38,172 bases of DNA from a virus. Position 1 is the stretch's first letter. Each line of letters opens with the position of its first letter. The DNA lies in UHGV virus genome UHGV-0200643. One strand, written 5' to 3'. Of the stretch, positions 22,682-38,172 are shown in pieces. The notes beneath the pieces were generated by a model, which was not told the DNA's origin, did no database searches, and saw only the letters and a program-made list of their open reading frames with translations. Made by a program: the position numbers and the translations under genes.

Positions 22682-22870
22682 ATGGGGAAAACTAACGAAA
22701 GGCTATTCCTAAGCGATTCAGAATTATCTGAATTGAAAAATATAATTGCATTTTCTTTGGAAGAAGGATATGGAGTTTATTACTCTGAAATAGAAACTAC
22801 AAAAAAAGTTTTACTCAAAATATTTCCAGAGGAATTTGAAAAGATAGTTCGAAATTCAATAGTGGAATAG
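22682..22870 (+). CDS. Moron gene 1: 62-aa hypothetical protein
   Basis: AT-rich compared with the flanking DNA. Lies between the lysin and attP. RBS GGGGGAA. Confidence 0.4.
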   Translation: MGKTNERLFLSDSELSELKNIIAFSLEEGYGVYYSEIETTKKVLLKIFPEEFEKIVRNSIVE

Positions 22871-22880
22871 AAAATCATCT

Positions 22881-23516
22881 ATGGATAAGAAAGAGCAAGC
22901 ATTGCTAAATGAGCGTCTGAAAAAGTTTTACCTGAGATTATTCGATGAATCGGATGTCTATTTATTACTGATTATGTTACGTCAGCACAGCAAAAAAAAC
23001 AGCATAGTATTTGAACTAGCTAATTTTGTTGCTCATAGGGAGCGTGATCGCGGAATGTTGCATAAGTACATTCTCGAAACGAAACTGAAAGCAGAAAAAA
23101 TAGGTGTAGAATCTACAACAATAGTAATAAAGGAAAGATTTAAAACTGCTGATCTTTTTAAAGATATAAACCAGATACTACTCGAATTAGAATTTTTACC
23201 TCTACCTAATGAAATATCTAATGAAATAATGGTGTGTGTAATATCACTTTTACAGGATGTTAAATTGGTGAATAACAATAAAATAATAGGTCATTTAGTG
23301 TTAGCTATATCTAAGGATGAGATTGAGCTTATGGGGAGCGTCAAACCAAAAGGAAAGATATATAAAACTACGAACATCAAAATTAATTTTCCGGTGTTAA
23401 AGGCAGAGAATATTTTCTATACTCCTATAACAAAAAGAGAAATAGAAAATACAGTCTTAACTGTTCGTGACGCAAGTGGTAAATTAGTATTAACTAACGT
23501 TGCAAAAAACGAATAA
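22881..23516 (+). CDS. Moron gene 2: 211-aa hypothetical protein (no recognisable family)
   Basis: AT-rich with distinct codon usage. Followed by a strong terminator. Confidence 0.5.
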   Translation: MDKKEQALLNERLKKFYLRLFDESDVYLLLIMLRQHSKKNSIVFELANFVAHRERDRGMLHKYILETKLKAEKIGVESTTIVIKERFKTADLFKDINQILLELEFLPLPNEISNEIMVCVISLLQDVKLVNNNKIIGHLVLAISKDEIELMGSVKPKGKIYKTTNIKINFPVLKAENIFYTPITKREIENTVLTVRDASGKLVLTNVAKNE

Positions 23517-23558: not shown

Positions 23559-23638
23559 TATTTCAAAGAATTTGCTTTTGCAAACTCTAAAAAAGAAGGC
23601 GTGTGGACATGTAGTTGCAATTTTTCATTCAAAAATAA

Positions 23639-23668
23639 AAAAGCCCGAATGATCAGGCTTTCATCATT
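23639..23668 (-). terminator. Intrinsic terminator for the minus-strand gene 23653..23907
   Basis: On the minus strand this reads AGCCTGATCATTCGGGCT followed by TTTTTTATTTTTG. Confidence 0.5.
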
Positions 23669-23907
23669 TCAAATTCCATCATAATTTTCGTCTTTCCGAT
23701 TACCGCATATTTCTTCACAATGAACTGTTTCCTACTATTATATAAACCAGCAACAACTACATGCATGCCGTCTTCTACGTCAGCTAAAAAATTCAACGAG
23801 TGACCAGCAATCAAACAGCTAGTATCATCAAGCTTAAAATAGACGAGGGGACGTTCAGAATACTCTAATATTTTAACTTTGCTAACTAAACCTGTCATTG
23901 ACTCCAT
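23653..23907 (-). CDS. Small (84 aa) hypothetical protein under a LexA-box promoter
   Basis: ATG at 23907 has RBS GAGGAG 8 nt upstream. The track ORF starts at the TTG at 23922. A promoter with an embedded Cheo box lies directly upstream. Confidence 0.5.
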   Translation of the reverse strand: MESMTGLVSKVKILEYSERPLVYFKLDDTSCLIAGHSLNFLADVEDGMHVVVAGLYNSRKQFIVKKYAVIGKTKIMMEFEMMKA

Positions 23908-23935
23908 GCGATCACTCCTCAATTTTGTTAATTAT

Positions 23936-23964
23936 ATTATACGAACAAATGTTCGATAAGTAAA
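23936..23964 (-). promoter_or_regulatory. Sigma-A-type promoter (-35 TTTACT, 17-nt spacer, -10 TATAAT) with an embedded LexA/Cheo box CGAACAAATGTTCG (23942-23955)
   Basis: The minus strand reads TTTACT-TATCGAACATTTGTTCG-TATAAT. This is a perfect match to the Firmicutes LexA consensus CGAAC-N4-GTTCG. Confidence 0.55.
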
Positions 23965-23986
23965 GCATGAAAGATAGATATTTGAT

Positions 23987-24006
23987 GGTGATAGCACTGG
24001 TGATAG
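23987..24006 (+). repeat. attP arm-type repeats, left set (2 x GGTGATAG)
   Basis: GGTGATAG at 23987-23994 and 23999-24006. The second copy is ACTGGTGATAGTGAA. Confidence 0.5.
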
Positions 24007-24215
24007 TGAATAGTTTTTTGTGCATTCTATGAAGGTTTAATTTAGGGATAAAACCTTGATATAATGCGATTCTTTCTTCAATAAAATTAATGAATCAAGG
24101 TTTACGAACAAAAAGAATATGTTCGCTTTGCTTGGAAAACCAGGATTTGAAGATTTAGCAAAAGAATTAAACGATCGTTTATAAATCGCTGTTTCTAGCA
24201 GATTTAATAACGACT

Positions 24216-24269
24216 GGTGATAGAAACATGTTTGCTTCATCTGTTTTTTGGTGATAGAAAAGGTGATAG
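24216..24269 (+). repeat. attP arm-type repeats, right set (3 x GGTGATAG)
   Basis: GGTGATAG at 24216-24223, 24250-24257 and 24262-24269, immediately upstream of the integrase 3' end. Confidence 0.5.
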
Positions 24270-24290
24270 TGAACTTGAAAAAGCACTCAA

Positions 24291-25508
24291 TTACGAGTGC
24301 TTTTTCTTTTGCTCTTCAAGATAATCTTCGAACTTTTTCATCGATCGTTCTTTCACTTCTGGAGTGACCGAAGCATAAATTTGAGTAGTAGAAATATCCT
24401 TATGACCTAACAAATCTTTTATGTCATCTAAATCCACCCCAGCTTGTCTCATCCGAATAGCATAAGTGTGTCGGCCATCATGTATTTTAATGTGCTTTAG
24501 TTTTGCTCGTTTTGCGATGCGGGCAGAAGCGCCATTTACCGAACGATTACGGACGATTTTTCCTTTTGATTTGCTTGTCGTATAAATAAAGATATAATCA
24601 GAGTTTGTTTTTTGTAATGGTGTGATCCCAATCTGATCATAGAAGTATTTATAAAATTCCAGCAGCGCAAATTTTGTCCGCTGTGTAATCGGCAAATCAC
24701 GTTCACCAGCGGGAGTCTTAGGGTCGTCAATGATGATTGCATCTTTATTTTCGCCAGTTTCTGCTCGATACAAACGTTCACGTTCGATATTGACAAAGTT
24801 AGAAGAGAAATCAAAGTCTGACCAACGTAGTGCCATAACCTCAGCTTTCCTCAATCCACAATCAAATATCAGTAAAAAGAAGGGATACCAAAACGGTTCC
24901 TTTTCGTTCTTTGCTGACTCAAAAAATTGATTAACTTCATCAGAACTGTAGTGTGGTGGAATCTTTGGTCCCTTAGGAGCTAACGGGAATTCAACATATT
25001 GTGCAGGATTATCTTTTACATAGCCTAACTGGATTGCTTTTCTATATGCGCTTGATAGAGTTGCATTAACTGTTTTAACTGTATTAAACGATAACCCTTT
25101 TTTGCTCCGACCTTTTCCATCAAGAGAAAATAGCTTGTTGATAAATTTTTGGTGATCAGCCCTAGAATAGTTAGTTAAGCGATGTTTGCCGATGTAAGGA
25201 TTGATATACATCCTGATATTTTCTCGGTGAACGATACGAGTACCTTCTTTTACTTTCAATTTGTATTCAGTAATCCATACCTTTAAAAATTGTTCAATTG
25301 TCATATATTTAACATCATTTTTTTGATAATCACCTTTTGCAATTTCACCTTCAGTTATTTTTGCATAGTTGTTTGCTTCATCCCAAGATCTAAAACCTTT
25401 TTTGTGGATTTTATTTTGCCGCTTGGTCCCAGGATCGATACCATTCGAGATAAAGACCTCATATCTAAGTTCGCCACTTTTTAAGTTGTATGGTTTTATA
25501 GATGCCAT
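24291..25508 (-). CDS. int: Tyrosine integrase (phage integrase family)
   Basis: 405 aa. N-terminal SAM-like/arm-binding region. C-terminal catalytic motifs: R...HDGRHTYAIRMRQAG...LLGHKDISTTQIYASV (R-H-R-Y). Confidence 0.9.
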   Translation of the reverse strand: MASIKPYNLKSGELRYEVFISNGIDPGTKRQNKIHKKGFRSWDEANNYAKITEGEIAKGDYQKNDVKYMTIEQFLKVWITEYKLKVKEGTRIVHRENIRMYINPYIGKHRLTNYSRADHQKFINKLFSLDGKGRSKKGLSFNTVKTVNATLSSAYRKAIQLGYVKDNPAQYVEFPLAPKGPKIPPHYSSDEVNQFFESAKNEKEPFWYPFFLLIFDCGLRKAEVMALRWSDFDFSSNFVNIERERLYRAETGENKDAIIIDDPKTPAGERDLPITQRTKFALLEFYKYFYDQIGITPLQKTNSDYIFIYTTSKSKGKIVRNRSVNGASARIAKRAKLKHIKIHDGRHTYAIRMRQAGVDLDDIKDLLGHKDISTTQIYASVTPEVKERSMKKFEDYLEEQKKKHS

Positions 25509-25614
25509 AAAATCATTCCTTTCGGATTATTTAGAGAAAAATTCATAAATGTCCGTATTCAATACGCACAATACTTCTAATTAGGACTTTAATCGTATTA
25601 TTGTCACTTTAATT

Positions 25615-25628
25615 CGAACTTATGTTCG
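25615..25628 (+). promoter_or_regulatory. Second LexA/Cheo box CGAACTTATGTTCG upstream of int
   Basis: Perfect CGAAC-N4-GTTCG, about 107 bp upstream of the int start codon on the minus strand and downstream of the terminator at 25631-25660. Confidence 0.45.
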
Positions 25629-25660: not shown

Positions 25661-25667
25661 ATCTTAA

Positions 25668-25820
25668 TCTTTTTCTCGTAAGACTTTTTCAATGTCTTTT
25701 TTCGCTTGCACGTAGTAGTTAGCTACTTGCTTGGCAGATTTGTGATCTAAGTCCACTTTTTCCAAATAAATGATCGCTACATCGTGAGCCGCTTTTCTAA
25801 TTTCTTCATCTGACATTTCG
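25668..25820 (-). CDS. Small 50-aa ORF (MSDEEIRKAAHDVAIIYLEKVDLDHKSAKQVANYYVQAKKDIEKVLREKD)
   Basis: Followed by a terminator. Missing from the ORF track because it is under 60 aa. A credible coding periodicity. Confidence 0.35.
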
Positions 25821-25890
25821 ATTCACCTTCTTTCAGATGGATATCAAACAATTCCTATTGATTAAAAAACTGTAGGATGATAATTTAACA

Positions 25891-26940
25891 TTATTTAAGT
25901 TCTATATAACCGTTATTAGTCCACCAGTCTGAATCATTAGATTTACCAGCATTTCCTATTTTCGTTTTAGTCTTTCCCTTAGATTCATTGAGTAAACTAT
26001 TTTGAATCATGTAGCCGTCCGATGCTGAATATAGAACAGTTCCATCAGAAGAGATTTGGTCGCTCCAATTAGCAAAATTTATCGAGTCGAGCGTCTGTTT
26101 TGTAAAAAATGTACTAATCGCTAAACCTTCTGATTCGTTACCTTTGTCATCAGTAAATGTTGTCGTCAATTGAATGATGATACTTTCGAATGGGGTGCCT
26201 TGTAGATTTTCTAAAATTTTTTCAACATCTTTGGGATAGGTAACTGCAACCAAAGAGTCGGCATTCCAAAAGGACTCGATTGGATAACTAATAATGACAT
26301 TGCTCCCTTCAATTTTAGTTTTATAATCGGAAACATCAGACTCACTCAATGCACTAGCTAAGATGTTTTCAGGCTTGCTTTCTTCAGTCTCATTTATTTT
26401 CTGGCGTTCGTCTGATTGATTATAAACTTCAACATTATAGGTTTCTGATACGTTTTCATTTGTTTCGGCTACAAGATCATAATAAATGAAATCTACTGTA
26501 GAAGGTAAAGTAACATAAAAATGAAATATTCCTTTTGAATCTGCAGTAGTTCGTATTTCTTTCAGAGAAACGTCATTACGTTCATTAGGTTTCAATTCAA
26601 CTTTGGCATTTTTTTTAGTTTTACCAACAATATCAGCTTTTCCATTTTTATCAGAGTCATATCCAAAATGATCAGAATACATAAACTTGTCGCTCACACT
26701 GATTTTTAAGGGTTCGTTTGCTTCGGTAGGATCAGAAGTCTTTTCAGTCGTTCCAGAGTTCGGTGATAACGAGAAAGCAAAAATAGAAACTACTAGAACG
26801 AGTAAGGAAATACCAATAACTATTAGTCCATTTTTTTTACCGTCTTTAGCAGTTAGTTTTTTTAAGCTAGGAAGCATTATAACGCCAGAAATAAAGCCGA
26901 TAATCGACAAACACATTAAAATTACAAAAAAAGATTGCAT
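25891..26940 (-). CDS. Membrane-anchored surface protein (2 N-terminal TM segments plus large extracytoplasmic domain), candidate superinfection exclusion protein
   Basis: TM helices FFVILMCLSIIGFISGVIML and LIVIGISLLVLVVSIFAFSL. AT-rich. Located between int and the repressor. The ATG at 26940 has RBS GGGGGAA; the track ORF starts at 26955. Confidence 0.5.
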   Translation of the reverse strand: MQSFFVILMCLSIIGFISGVIMLPSLKKLTAKDGKKNGLIVIGISLLVLVVSIFAFSLSPNSGTTEKTSDPTEANEPLKISVSDKFMYSDHFGYDSDKNGKADIVGKTKKNAKVELKPNERNDVSLKEIRTTADSKGIFHFYVTLPSTVDFIYYDLVAETNENVSETYNVEVYNQSDERQKINETEESKPENILASALSESDVSDYKTKIEGSNVIISYPIESFWNADSLVAVTYPKDVEKILENLQGTPFESIIIQLTTTFTDDKGNESEGLAISTFFTKQTLDSINFANWSDQISSDGTVLYSASDGYMIQNSLLNESKGKTKTKIGNAGKSNDSDWWTNNGYIELK

Positions 26941-27009
26941 CAACATTTCCCCCACAATAATAATTTTAAACTCCCACTTAATGGCAGGTAGTTTTAGTCG
27001 CCAGTATTT

Positions 27010-27414
27010 TTACCCATACGATTCTTGATACGCATATTCGAAAGCGATTTCTTTTATTAAGTCTTGATAACTCATATCTAAATTATTTTGTTCTATAAAC
27101 TGCATAAAATTGAACTCATGTATATCTATATCAAGAAGTGATATATAAATTCTTACAAGTTCAGTTATCATAAAACAATCAGCTTGATATTCCATTTTTG
27201 AATGAAATCTCCCGATTTTATAAATTTCTTTTAAGTCATCATGTAAAACTCCATGACCAGCTTCGTGTAAAATCACTTTAATCTTTTCGAAATCGTTTAA
27301 TCCCTTGCAGACAAACATTGTTTTTACTTCTGATATATAACAACCAGGTTTATCTAAATCAAATAATTTTAAAGTAATTCCATATTTTTCGAGAAGCGCT
27401 TCAACTTCCTTCAT
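27010..27414 (-). CDS. ImmA/IrrE-family metallopeptidase (anti-repressor protease)
   Basis: HEXXH motif (ILHEAGHGVLHDD). Its stop lies immediately downstream of the XRE repressor, the typical ImmR-ImmA arrangement. Confidence 0.75.
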   Translation of the reverse strand: MKEVEALLEKYGITLKLFDLDKPGCYISEVKTMFVCKGLNDFEKIKVILHEAGHGVLHDDLKEIYKIGRFHSKMEYQADCFMITELVRIYISLLDIDIHEFNFMQFIEQNNLDMSYQDLIKEIAFEYAYQESYG

Positions 27415-27428
27415 GTCAGCACTCCTCT

Positions 27429-27788
27429 TTATTTTCCATACTTTCCCTTTAGGTATGCACGAATAATTTCTCGATCATGATCTGTTATTGGTTCGCCGTC
27501 AAAACTCATAGCGCTGTCTAACATTTTATCAAGATCGGTATCTGTAGGTTTGTCCTTAACCGACGAAGAAGTACCATCAGCAAGATAATCAACACTTACA
27601 TTATAAATAGAAGCTAAGTCTTTTAAAGATTGTAAATCTGGTTCTCTCGTTCCGTACTCCCAATTAGCATAAGTAGCCATATTTTTTAAACCTAACTTGT
27701 TTGCCACTAATGTTTTTGTCCATCCGTTCTGTTCCCTTAACGATTCAAGACGTTTTGCTAGGGATGATCTATCATCAGACAATTTCAT
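27429..27788 (-). CDS. XRE-family HTH repressor (cI/ImmR-like)
   Basis: N-terminal HTH (LREQNGWTKTLVANKLGLKNMATYANWEYG). Transcribed divergently from the cro-like gene. Confidence 0.75.
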   Translation of the reverse strand: MKLSDDRSSLAKRLESLREQNGWTKTLVANKLGLKNMATYANWEYGTREPDLQSLKDLASIYNVSVDYLADGTSSSVKDKPTDTDLDKMLDSAMSFDGEPITDHDREIIRAYLKGKYGK

Positions 27789-28360: not shown

Positions 28361-28539
28361 GTTAATTGTAAACATGTTTGCTTCGTTATTGGACACTATT
28401 TTTACTGTTAGAACAAAATCGGGATACATTCGAAAAAAGACGAAACACTTGGTTAATCTGTTTGTTTCAAACCTAAAAATAGGAAATTATTGAAACCTAA
28501 TTCGGACAAATTCATGAAATAATTTAAGGAGGGATCGTA

Positions 28540-29073
28540 ATGATGCGAGTCGCTTTAAAAAGTGAATTAGATGCTTTGCTGATACGAAGAAATCTTTCGC
28601 AAAAAGAAGTCGCTAAAGAAAGCAACATTCCATTTTCAACATTGAATGGTTACACGAAAGGAACGCAAGAAGTTCCAGTTAATAAAGCTATAGATATTAA
28701 TAACGCTGTCGGAGATGACGTGTTTGCATCAGGTATTAGTAATAAGTATTTAGGTACTTTGAAAGCCTTAGATGGAAAAGTGTCAGAGGTTCTAACACCA
28801 ACGGAATTAGATTTTTTACAAGACCAAGAAACAATTCAGCGTGAGGAAAGAAGAGAACAAGCTAAAAGGTTGCTAATTAAATCGAAGCTTGAACCGCTAA
28901 ATGATCAAGACAAAGAAGACTTAGAAAAATACGTAATGGAATTTTTAGATGAAATAGTCGTTGAACTTTCTATCGTGTTTTCAATACTTAAGATTCTTAG
29001 AATGACAATCACTGAAGCTTTTTCCAAACGGATGCCACATTGGGTGACTAAAAAGTATATGAAAGGTGAATGA
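28540..29073 (+). CDS. HTH (XRE-like) DNA-binding protein of the early region
   Basis: N-terminal HTH (LSQKEVAKESNIPFSTLNGYTKG). RBS AAGGAGGG. Confidence 0.45.
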   Translation: MMRVALKSELDALLIRRNLSQKEVAKESNIPFSTLNGYTKGTQEVPVNKAIDINNAVGDDVFASGISNKYLGTLKALDGKVSEVLTPTELDFLQDQETIQREERREQAKRLLIKSKLEPLNDQDKEDLEKYVMEFLDEIVVELSIVFSILKILRMTITEAFSKRMPHWVTKKYMKGE

Positions 29074-29075
29074 AT

Positions 29076-29354
29076 ATGATTATTGAAAAACCTAAAGTAG
29101 TTCAGTTTAGAAATGAAAAAATCCAAGCTAAAAAGAACTATCCAGAAATGATTAGTCGATCAGAGTTAGCTAGACGATGGGGAGTATCAATCGGAACTAT
29201 CAAAAATTGGACAGATAGACCTTATGACCCGCTTCCTATGGAAATGACTTCACCAACACGAATCGGAACTAAAGAAGTCGTTAGAATCCCGTTCGAGCTC
29301 GCTGTCGAGTGGAAGGAACGCAATACGAACAGAAACTATGAGGTGAAAGCATGA
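29076..29354 (+). CDS. Small HTH DNA-binding protein (excisionase/MerR-like helix)
   Basis: SRSELARRWGVSIGTIKNW is an HTH-like segment. Confidence 0.4.
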   Translation: MIIEKPKVVQFRNEKIQAKKNYPEMISRSELARRWGVSIGTIKNWTDRPYDPLPMEMTSPTRIGTKEVVRIPFELAVEWKERNTNRNYEVKA

Positions 29355-38124: not shown

Positions 38125-38172
38125 AAAAACACCAAGCTTTCGCTCAGCGCTAAATGTTATCTAGTCAATAAC

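Follow-up and report, generated by a model that had tools for sequence, protein, structure and literature searches.

The window analysed here is the whole 38,172-bp stretch of DNA. Genes for lysis (XhlA, holin and amidase) and three small ORFs are encoded to the left of the segment at 23985-24275 that we interpret below as attP. To its right are genes for an integrase (int), an ImmA-like metalloprotease, a helix-turn-helix (HTH) repressor, a Cro-like protein, RecT and replication proteins. These gene surroundings are those of a temperate siphovirus. Cargo-like ORFs were also identified on both sides of the int-attP module: two of 62 and 211 amino acids (22682-23516, + strand) between the lysin gene and attP, and two between int and the gene for the ImmA-like protease (25664-26955, - strand), one of 50 amino acids and one encoding a predicted membrane-anchored protein of 354 amino acids. 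Convincing matches to the cargo-like ORFs were not identified in Pfam, PHROGs or PADLOC, and the small neighbouring ORFs likewise had none in NCBIfam.

The int gene (24291-25508, - strand) encodes a tyrosine integrase of 405 amino acids with Pfam domains Phage_integrase (E-value 3.6e-26) and Phage_int_SAM_3 (SAM_3; 4.5e-14) and with the catalytic residues R220, H343, R346 and Y378, all four of which are invariant in the integrase alignment. Residues 15-59 match Arm-DNA-bind_4 (PF14657) with an E-value of 8e-4 and 19.4 bits, under the Pfam cut-off of 22.3 bits; the same domain is matched by all three aligned members of the Int family (best E-value 8.8e-9). The Pfam and family matches bear out the earlier note on this DNA in taking the neighbouring gene as int, and they assign an arm-binding-type domain to the N-terminus of its product. 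Among solved structures, the Tn1549 Int is the closest (PDB 6emy, E-value 7e-13); a PDB search with the N-terminal 74 residues returned only noise. Megablast of 23600-25600 against deposited phages gave no match, and leads came only from distant blastn and tblastn searches. The closest deposited relatives of Int are those of Enterococcus phage EG-TP1 (59% identity) and of a Lacticaseibacillus phage group (43%) that includes phiFSW (43-44% to phiFSW Int, 399-403 amino acids, E-value 1e-100). A hairpin terminator with a 12-bp stem (24277-24306) overlaps the int stop codon and is conserved in relatives.

The int ORF begins 22 bp past the last of five copies of GGTGATAG, all on the + strand. Two of these, P1 (23987-23994; extended consensus yTGGTGATAGtga) and P2 (23999-24006), are to the left of the central segment, and three, P'1 (24216-24223), P'2 (24250-24257) and P'3 (24262-24269), are to the right. 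There is no further copy in the window. This exact match count agrees with the five direct repeats, two left and three right, that had been described before, and the extended matches ACTGGTGATAG and GGTGATAGTGAA do occur twice each. The five copies fall in 283 bp beside int, compared with 0.69 expected in the window from dinucleotide-preserving shuffles (0/100 shuffles gave five) and 0.005 expected from composition for one strand of the 283-bp span. P1 and P2 are 12 bp apart from start to start, as are P'2 and P'3, and the two pairs form a 30-nt direct repeat (25/30 identical).

The arrangement is shared with other phages. In a five-way attP alignment the arm repeats are invariant blocks, and the DNA between them has diverged. 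P1 is aligned and invariant in the attP regions of the window, EG-TP1 and two viral contigs, L014 and L033 (L numbers denote individual sequences), and is replaced by GGTGAAG in phiFSW; P'1 reads GGTGAAYG in the EG-TP1 group. The layout of two repeats, core, and two or three repeats recurs with near-constant spacing in four further Enterococcus attP lineages (Int 59-88% identical), and the distance from P1 to the ATG in the central coding tail is 132-133 bp across all Enterococcus lineages. Phages of the phiFSW type from Lacticaseibacillus keep the repeat layout too. The arm motif varies with the integrase lineage, and phiFSW, JNU_P10 and R24.2 have GGTGAAG at the corresponding 2 + 2 positions. 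The lambda-like P/P' arm architecture proposed previously is thus upheld by the conservation of repeat positions on both sides of the core and by the tyrosine integrase next to it.

Comparative support is strong for the five GGTGATAG repeats as putative arm sites, to which Int would bind. Another reading is that they bind a different protein (Xis, a repressor or a host factor) or regulate int. The repeats near int do sit just upstream of the int terminator, and a TGATAT motif and a core-like copy (both described below) hint that other proteins may bind the region. We nevertheless regard this reading as improbable: like arm sites, the repeats flank the core and come in tandem pairs spaced by 12 bp, and each integrase lineage has its own motif (GGTGATAG for Enterococcus Int, GGTGAAG for Int of the phiFSW type). 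Moreover, the integrase family carries the Arm-DNA-bind_4 domain, and GGTGATAG is found nowhere else in the genome, the lysis/lysogeny switch region included.

The central segment between the putative arm sites contains an open frame (24065-24184, + strand) that ends in a coding tail, and both the frame and its ending are as the earlier note gave them. The last 25 codons match the 3' end of host pgi, and this phage-borne copy spans 24110-24184 (+ strand). The suggestion that the central segment represents the 3' end of the bacterial target gene can now be made specific, as a full ORF of Enterococcus raffinosus identifies the gene as pgi (glucose-6-phosphate isomerase). In E. raffinosus DSM 5633, which was matched in one tail-sequence scan of species-representative genomes, the same peptide ends an uninterrupted 459-aa ORF with a Pfam PGI match (E-value 1e-22). 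A Pfam search of the 29-aa tail peptide alone gave no match, so full host ORFs were needed to identify pgi. Because the tail is the end of an intact PGI ORF at a locus that matches attR, we conclude that the target gene is pgi and that attB of E. raffinosus DSM 5633 is empty. A tRNA target was excluded, as neither a tRNA nor a tmRNA is encoded in the window.

A host search for attB and the segment of identity had been advised, and it yielded three empty sites at the 3' end of pgi. One is that of E. raffinosus DSM 5633; the other two are from a metagenomic Enterococcus (L036 and L037), were found by a scan of metagenomes for the pgi body followed by the core sequence of the window itself, and have a pgi region ~88% identical to that of DSM 5633. 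Positions 24110-24165 are identical to empty attB L036 (56/56) and 24116-24165 to empty attB L037 (50/50), and the longest run of identity between the window core and the empty site of DSM 5633 is 38 bp (38/38). A few bases distinguish the phage tail from L036 beyond 24165, and integration there would therefore alter only ...AKDLNNRL to ...AKELNDRL.

The phage tail aligns codon for codon with the tail of phiFSW and with host Pgi C-termini. Its differences from other tails are mostly of the synonymous type (synonymous to nonsynonymous 9:2 compared with EG-TP1, 10:1 with L033 and 12:5 with phiFSW), as expected of a tail that lysogens translate as the C-terminus of Pgi. Three contigs with P arms identical to those of the window (L013, L020 and L023) differ from it in the allele of a 13-bp core patch (TTCGCTTTGCTTGGA versus TTTGCCCTACTTGGA, window-equivalent 24110-24135), and the two alleles match those of different Enterococcus pgi genes. 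This suggests that host sequence is occasionally copied into attP.

Viral contigs were scanned for the double arm motif, and the matches were aligned on the tail. Forms with an intact attP are the window, EG-TP1, L013/L020/L023, L014/L027 and L025/L033. In attL forms (L007, L008, L012 and, found later, L039 and L040) a long ORF, the pgi body, continues into the tail, with the P' arm and int behind it. In attR forms (L017 and L029) unrelated DNA with a terminator takes over directly after the stop codon of the tail, which is preceded by the P arm. Accordingly, the P' repeats are retained in attL (P'2 in all five junctions) and the P repeats in attR (P2 in both). The attL and attR structures that had been predicted are therefore present, by contig comparison, in sibling phages with the same arm motif. 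These hybrid junctions are from siblings; the exact phage itself was met only in excised form.

The attR junctions also help to delimit the exchange. The host flank of L029 matches the empty site of E. raffinosus (606 bp, one mismatch; 605/605 identical apart from it). The mismatch is the phage-type G at the window-equivalent of 24115, where E. raffinosus has A, which places the exchange to the right of 24115. For the right limit, the 40-bp common core of phiFSW ends at window-equivalent 24146. Strand exchange thus probably occurs within 24116-24146 (+ strand), judging from these two alignments. The presence of a host-type T versus the C of related attP copies tentatively hints at an exchange within 24116-24126. 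An attL of the E. raffinosus type, which would give a matched attL/attR pair for placing the crossover, was sought in the viral contigs and none was found.

The probable exchange interval begins with a sequence that is repeated in the P' arm. The window contains three copies of AAYATGTTYGC (0.12 expected): one in the core at 24116, one in the P' arm at 24225 and one in an intergenic part of the early region at 28371. The P'-arm copy, AACATGTTTGC (24225-24235, + strand), is 109 bp from the core copy at 24116-24126, and this spacing is exact in 7/7 att regions examined and the same in every Enterococcus lineage. The P' copy of EG-TP1 can still be read as N-M-F-A-L-V, as in pgi. The fixed spacing and this residual reading could be taken to mean that the real crossover is at the P'-arm copy and that the pgi tail is a relic of an old aberrant excision. 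The junctions make this very unlikely. In 5/5 attL the host pgi body runs into the first copy, which is followed by phage-type post-stop sequence and only then by the P' copy, and in 2/2 attR the stop codon of the tail, which is preceded by the P arm, directly abuts host DNA. Both sets of hybrid sequences therefore place the junction inside the tail-bearing copy.

The third core-like copy, TAATTGTAAACATGTTTGCTTCGTTATTGG (28366-28390), lies in the early operon between a 52-aa ORF and a gene for a 177-aa HTH regulator. Fifteen of its nucleotides, AAACATGTTTGCTTC, are those of the P'-arm copy at 24224-24238. This third copy is also present in L013 and absent from EG-TP1.

Other elements in the central segment had been pointed out earlier, and these fared less well. 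The palindrome CGAACA-N9-TGTTCG is present, at 24105-24125 rather than 24103-24123, but its left half is specific to this phage and missing from relatives. The AAGGTTT inverted repeats are real, with positions of the AAGGTTT/AAACCTT copies corrected to 24032-24038, 24051-24057 and 24097-24103, but they are limited to the closest relatives: neither EG-TP1 nor L014 has them, and the small palindrome of L033 is a different one. Given this lack of conservation, both were rejected as features of the family.

TGATAT(A/T)A, located ~62 bp to the left of the tail's ATG, is conserved in every attP lineage, and TGATAT is also present at the corresponding place in phiFSW, which has a different arm motif. 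In the window it is part of TGATATAAT (24057-24065, + strand), an extended -10-like motif that faces the core. A promoter scan did not call TGATATAAT, which lacks a -35 element. It may act as a promoter or be bound by an accessory protein. A role as an outward promoter that restores expression of downstream host genes was considered unlikely because pgi of E. raffinosus is immediately followed by its own terminator.

Two perfect Cheo (LexA) boxes, CGAAC-N4-GTTCG, flank the int-attP module, compared with 0.015 expected. The first, CGAACAAATGTTCG (23942-23955), is in the spacer of a TTTACT-17-TATAAT promoter (23936-23964, - strand) for an ORF at 23653-23922 (- strand). The protein encoded by this ORF (84-89 amino acids) has homologues in all relatives and weak OB-fold hints, and no family match was identified for it in PHROG, NCBIfam or PADLOC. 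The LexA box is likewise placed in EG-TP1, L013, L020 and L023, and a perfect box occurs ~270 bp from the P-arm repeats in L014, L027 and L029. The second box, CGAACTTATGTTCG (25615-25628), is 107 nt upstream of the int start, directly after the hairpin that belongs to the 50-aa ORF upstream. L020 and L013 retain it with a single mismatch (GTTTG), and L027 and EG-TP1, in which int overlaps an upstream gene, lack it. The position of this box suggests that int expression is SOS-controlled through LexA. The lysogeny switch itself is of the ImmR/ImmA type (27010-27788, - strand), with a 119-aa HTH repressor followed by a HEAGH metalloprotease (phrog_87, 1.3e-22), and contrasts with the direct LexA boxes elsewhere in the genome.

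The P' core-like copy might be a functional second core-type site for Int that affects how the intasome is built or in which direction recombination runs, or else a fossil core, with the LexA boxes making int SOS-inducible; we hold this combined proposal to be doubtful. As a fossil, the AAYATGTTYGC copy would record an aberrant excision that captured the pgi tail, by which a gene-disrupting insertion would have become a gene-preserving one.

An excisionase was sought among the early genes and beside attP. We identified an ORF in the early operon (29070-29354, + strand) that encodes an HTH protein of 94 amino acids with similarity to EG-TP1 gp20, an annotated excisionase (31% over 59 amino acids; phrog_66, E-value 6e-4). 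It is a low-confidence candidate. The ORF of up to 89 codons that is driven by the promoter with the first LexA box was dropped as the leading excisionase, as its weak hints are OB-fold-like and not HTH and it is not always beside attP. IHF-like or Xis sites were not identified at attP; candidate sites for accessory bending or directionality factors are the TGATAT motif and the AAYATGTTYGC copy.

The end of the window, position 38172, joins position 1 at 100% identity in two independent assemblies, and the 38,172 bp of the window therefore make up one complete unit, circular or concatemeric. An exact-protein look-up found Int only on metagenomic contigs with the attP-intact gene order, i.e., in the excised form, and did not find a lysogen of this phage. 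The end-to-start joint, along with the lack of host flanks on the attP-intact contigs, agrees with the earlier note in that the sequence represents the phage or replicative form and not a prophage junction. Could the window instead be an attP between two tandem prophage copies, or a mis-assembly? A circle or concatemer and a tandem dilysogen are alike at the sequence level, and some contigs (40.6 and 42.6 kb) are longer than one genome unit. Against this, several independent assemblies agree in the order, none of them with host flank, and two of these contain the joint at 100% identity. We give this option very little weight, and the site would be an attP either way, on a circle or between tandem copies. 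A 138-aa protein encoded at 25-441 of the window is identical to one encoded in another phage context, beside a GmrSD-like gene, in genome L044 (GCA_031928145.1, JARPZF010000017.1), which is a possible host for relatives of the phage.

Overall, we interpret 23985-24275 as the lambda-type, pgi-targeting attP of a temperate Enterococcus siphovirus (E. raffinosus/avium group), with a probability of about 90%. Int is predicted to be heterobivalent, with an N-terminal domain that would bind the five direct GGTGATAG arm sites and core-binding and catalytic domains that would act in the pgi tail. Insertion would occur through recombination of this tail with the identical sequence that lies at the 3' end of pgi in the chromosome. 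The resulting attL would consist of the pgi body, phage-supplied C-terminal codons and stop codon, the P' arm, the terminator and int, and attR would consist of the lysis-side genes, the P arm and the displaced host pgi tail. Pgi would stay full length after insertion, with at most a change of its last residues (...KDLNNRL to ...KELNDRL in the best-matching host). The hairpin at 24277-24306 would end transcription of int and, in the lysogen, also the rebuilt pgi transcript.

These results fix the integration site (the pgi 3' end) and the likely host group (relatives of E. raffinosus and E. avium) for an uncultured, gut-type phage known only from metagenomes, and define exact boundaries for the members of a widespread Enterococcus prophage family. 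In the open-access literature we found no report of an Enterococcus phage that uses pgi as its attB. The int-attP cassette of ~1.6 kb could serve as a single-copy integration vector for enterococci, as that of phiFSW does for L. casei. The arrangement is a textbook one, and its value is in annotation and tools rather than in a new principle; only the P' core copy and the LexA boxes go beyond the textbook.

Several features of a lambda-type attP are present at this site: an adjacent tyrosine integrase with an arm-binding-type domain, repeated arm-type sequences that flank the core and are unrelated to it in sequence, and a core identical to a bacterial attB. Hybrid junctions are present in sibling phages. 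In phage lambda, attP is ~250-290 bp long, lies next to int and has five arm-type sites split 2 + 3 (P1 and P2, C-O-C', P'1 to P'3) that are used by a heterobivalent tyrosine integrase. The window likewise has 2 + 3 putative arm sites around a core beside int. Sequence similarity to lambda is lacking, however, and the core of the window is in a duplicated host gene 3' end with 56 bp of host identity, compared with 15 bp in lambda. The arm sites of the window are also all in direct orientation, and sites for IHF, Xis and Fis are not identifiable; Firmicutes are not known to have IHF. The integrases of Tn916 and Tn1549 resemble Int in their catalytic and core-binding domains and are heterobivalent with direct arm repeats, but these elements are conjugative transposons with low target specificity and without duplication of a host gene.

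A phage with the same target gene is prophage J64 P3 of Latilactobacillus sakei (L. sakei), which is located in the glucose-6-phosphate isomerase gene (PMC9641780). Its att repeat, TTATAGGCGTTCGTTTAATT, is the reverse complement of a tail end that reads ...ELNERL*. Unlike the site described here, it is known from prophage boundary prediction only, without described arm sites or attP.

Closer is EG-TP1 (PQ571292), which was induced from E. gallinarum. Its attP is collinear with that of the window, with GGTGATAG repeats, a pgi tail and the P' copy at 109 bp, and it shares the LexA box on the P side. It differs in that P'1 is GGTGAATG and that there is no intergenic LexA box upstream of int, and attP is unannotated in the record.

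Another close counterpart is phiFSW of Lacticaseibacillus casei (AB023774), which reportedly has its attB in the pgi 3' end. It shares with the window the order of two repeats, TGATAT, a pgi-like tail, two repeats, a terminator and a convergent int, and the same module is present in phages JNU_P10, R24.2, iLp84 and PLE3. It differs in the host genus, in the arm motif (GGTGAAG rather than GGTGATAG), in having four repeats with P'1 absent, and in host identity (40 bp versus 56 bp in the window). In addition, TGATAT is ~20 bp farther from the core, and the P' core-like copy is weak and has been lost in R24.2. The annotated 40-bp recombination region of phiFSW (AB023774, 2857-2896) falls within its tail and aligns to 24107-24146 of the window, and its int-attP module has been used in the integration vector pYAP300 for L. 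casei (PMC5897238).
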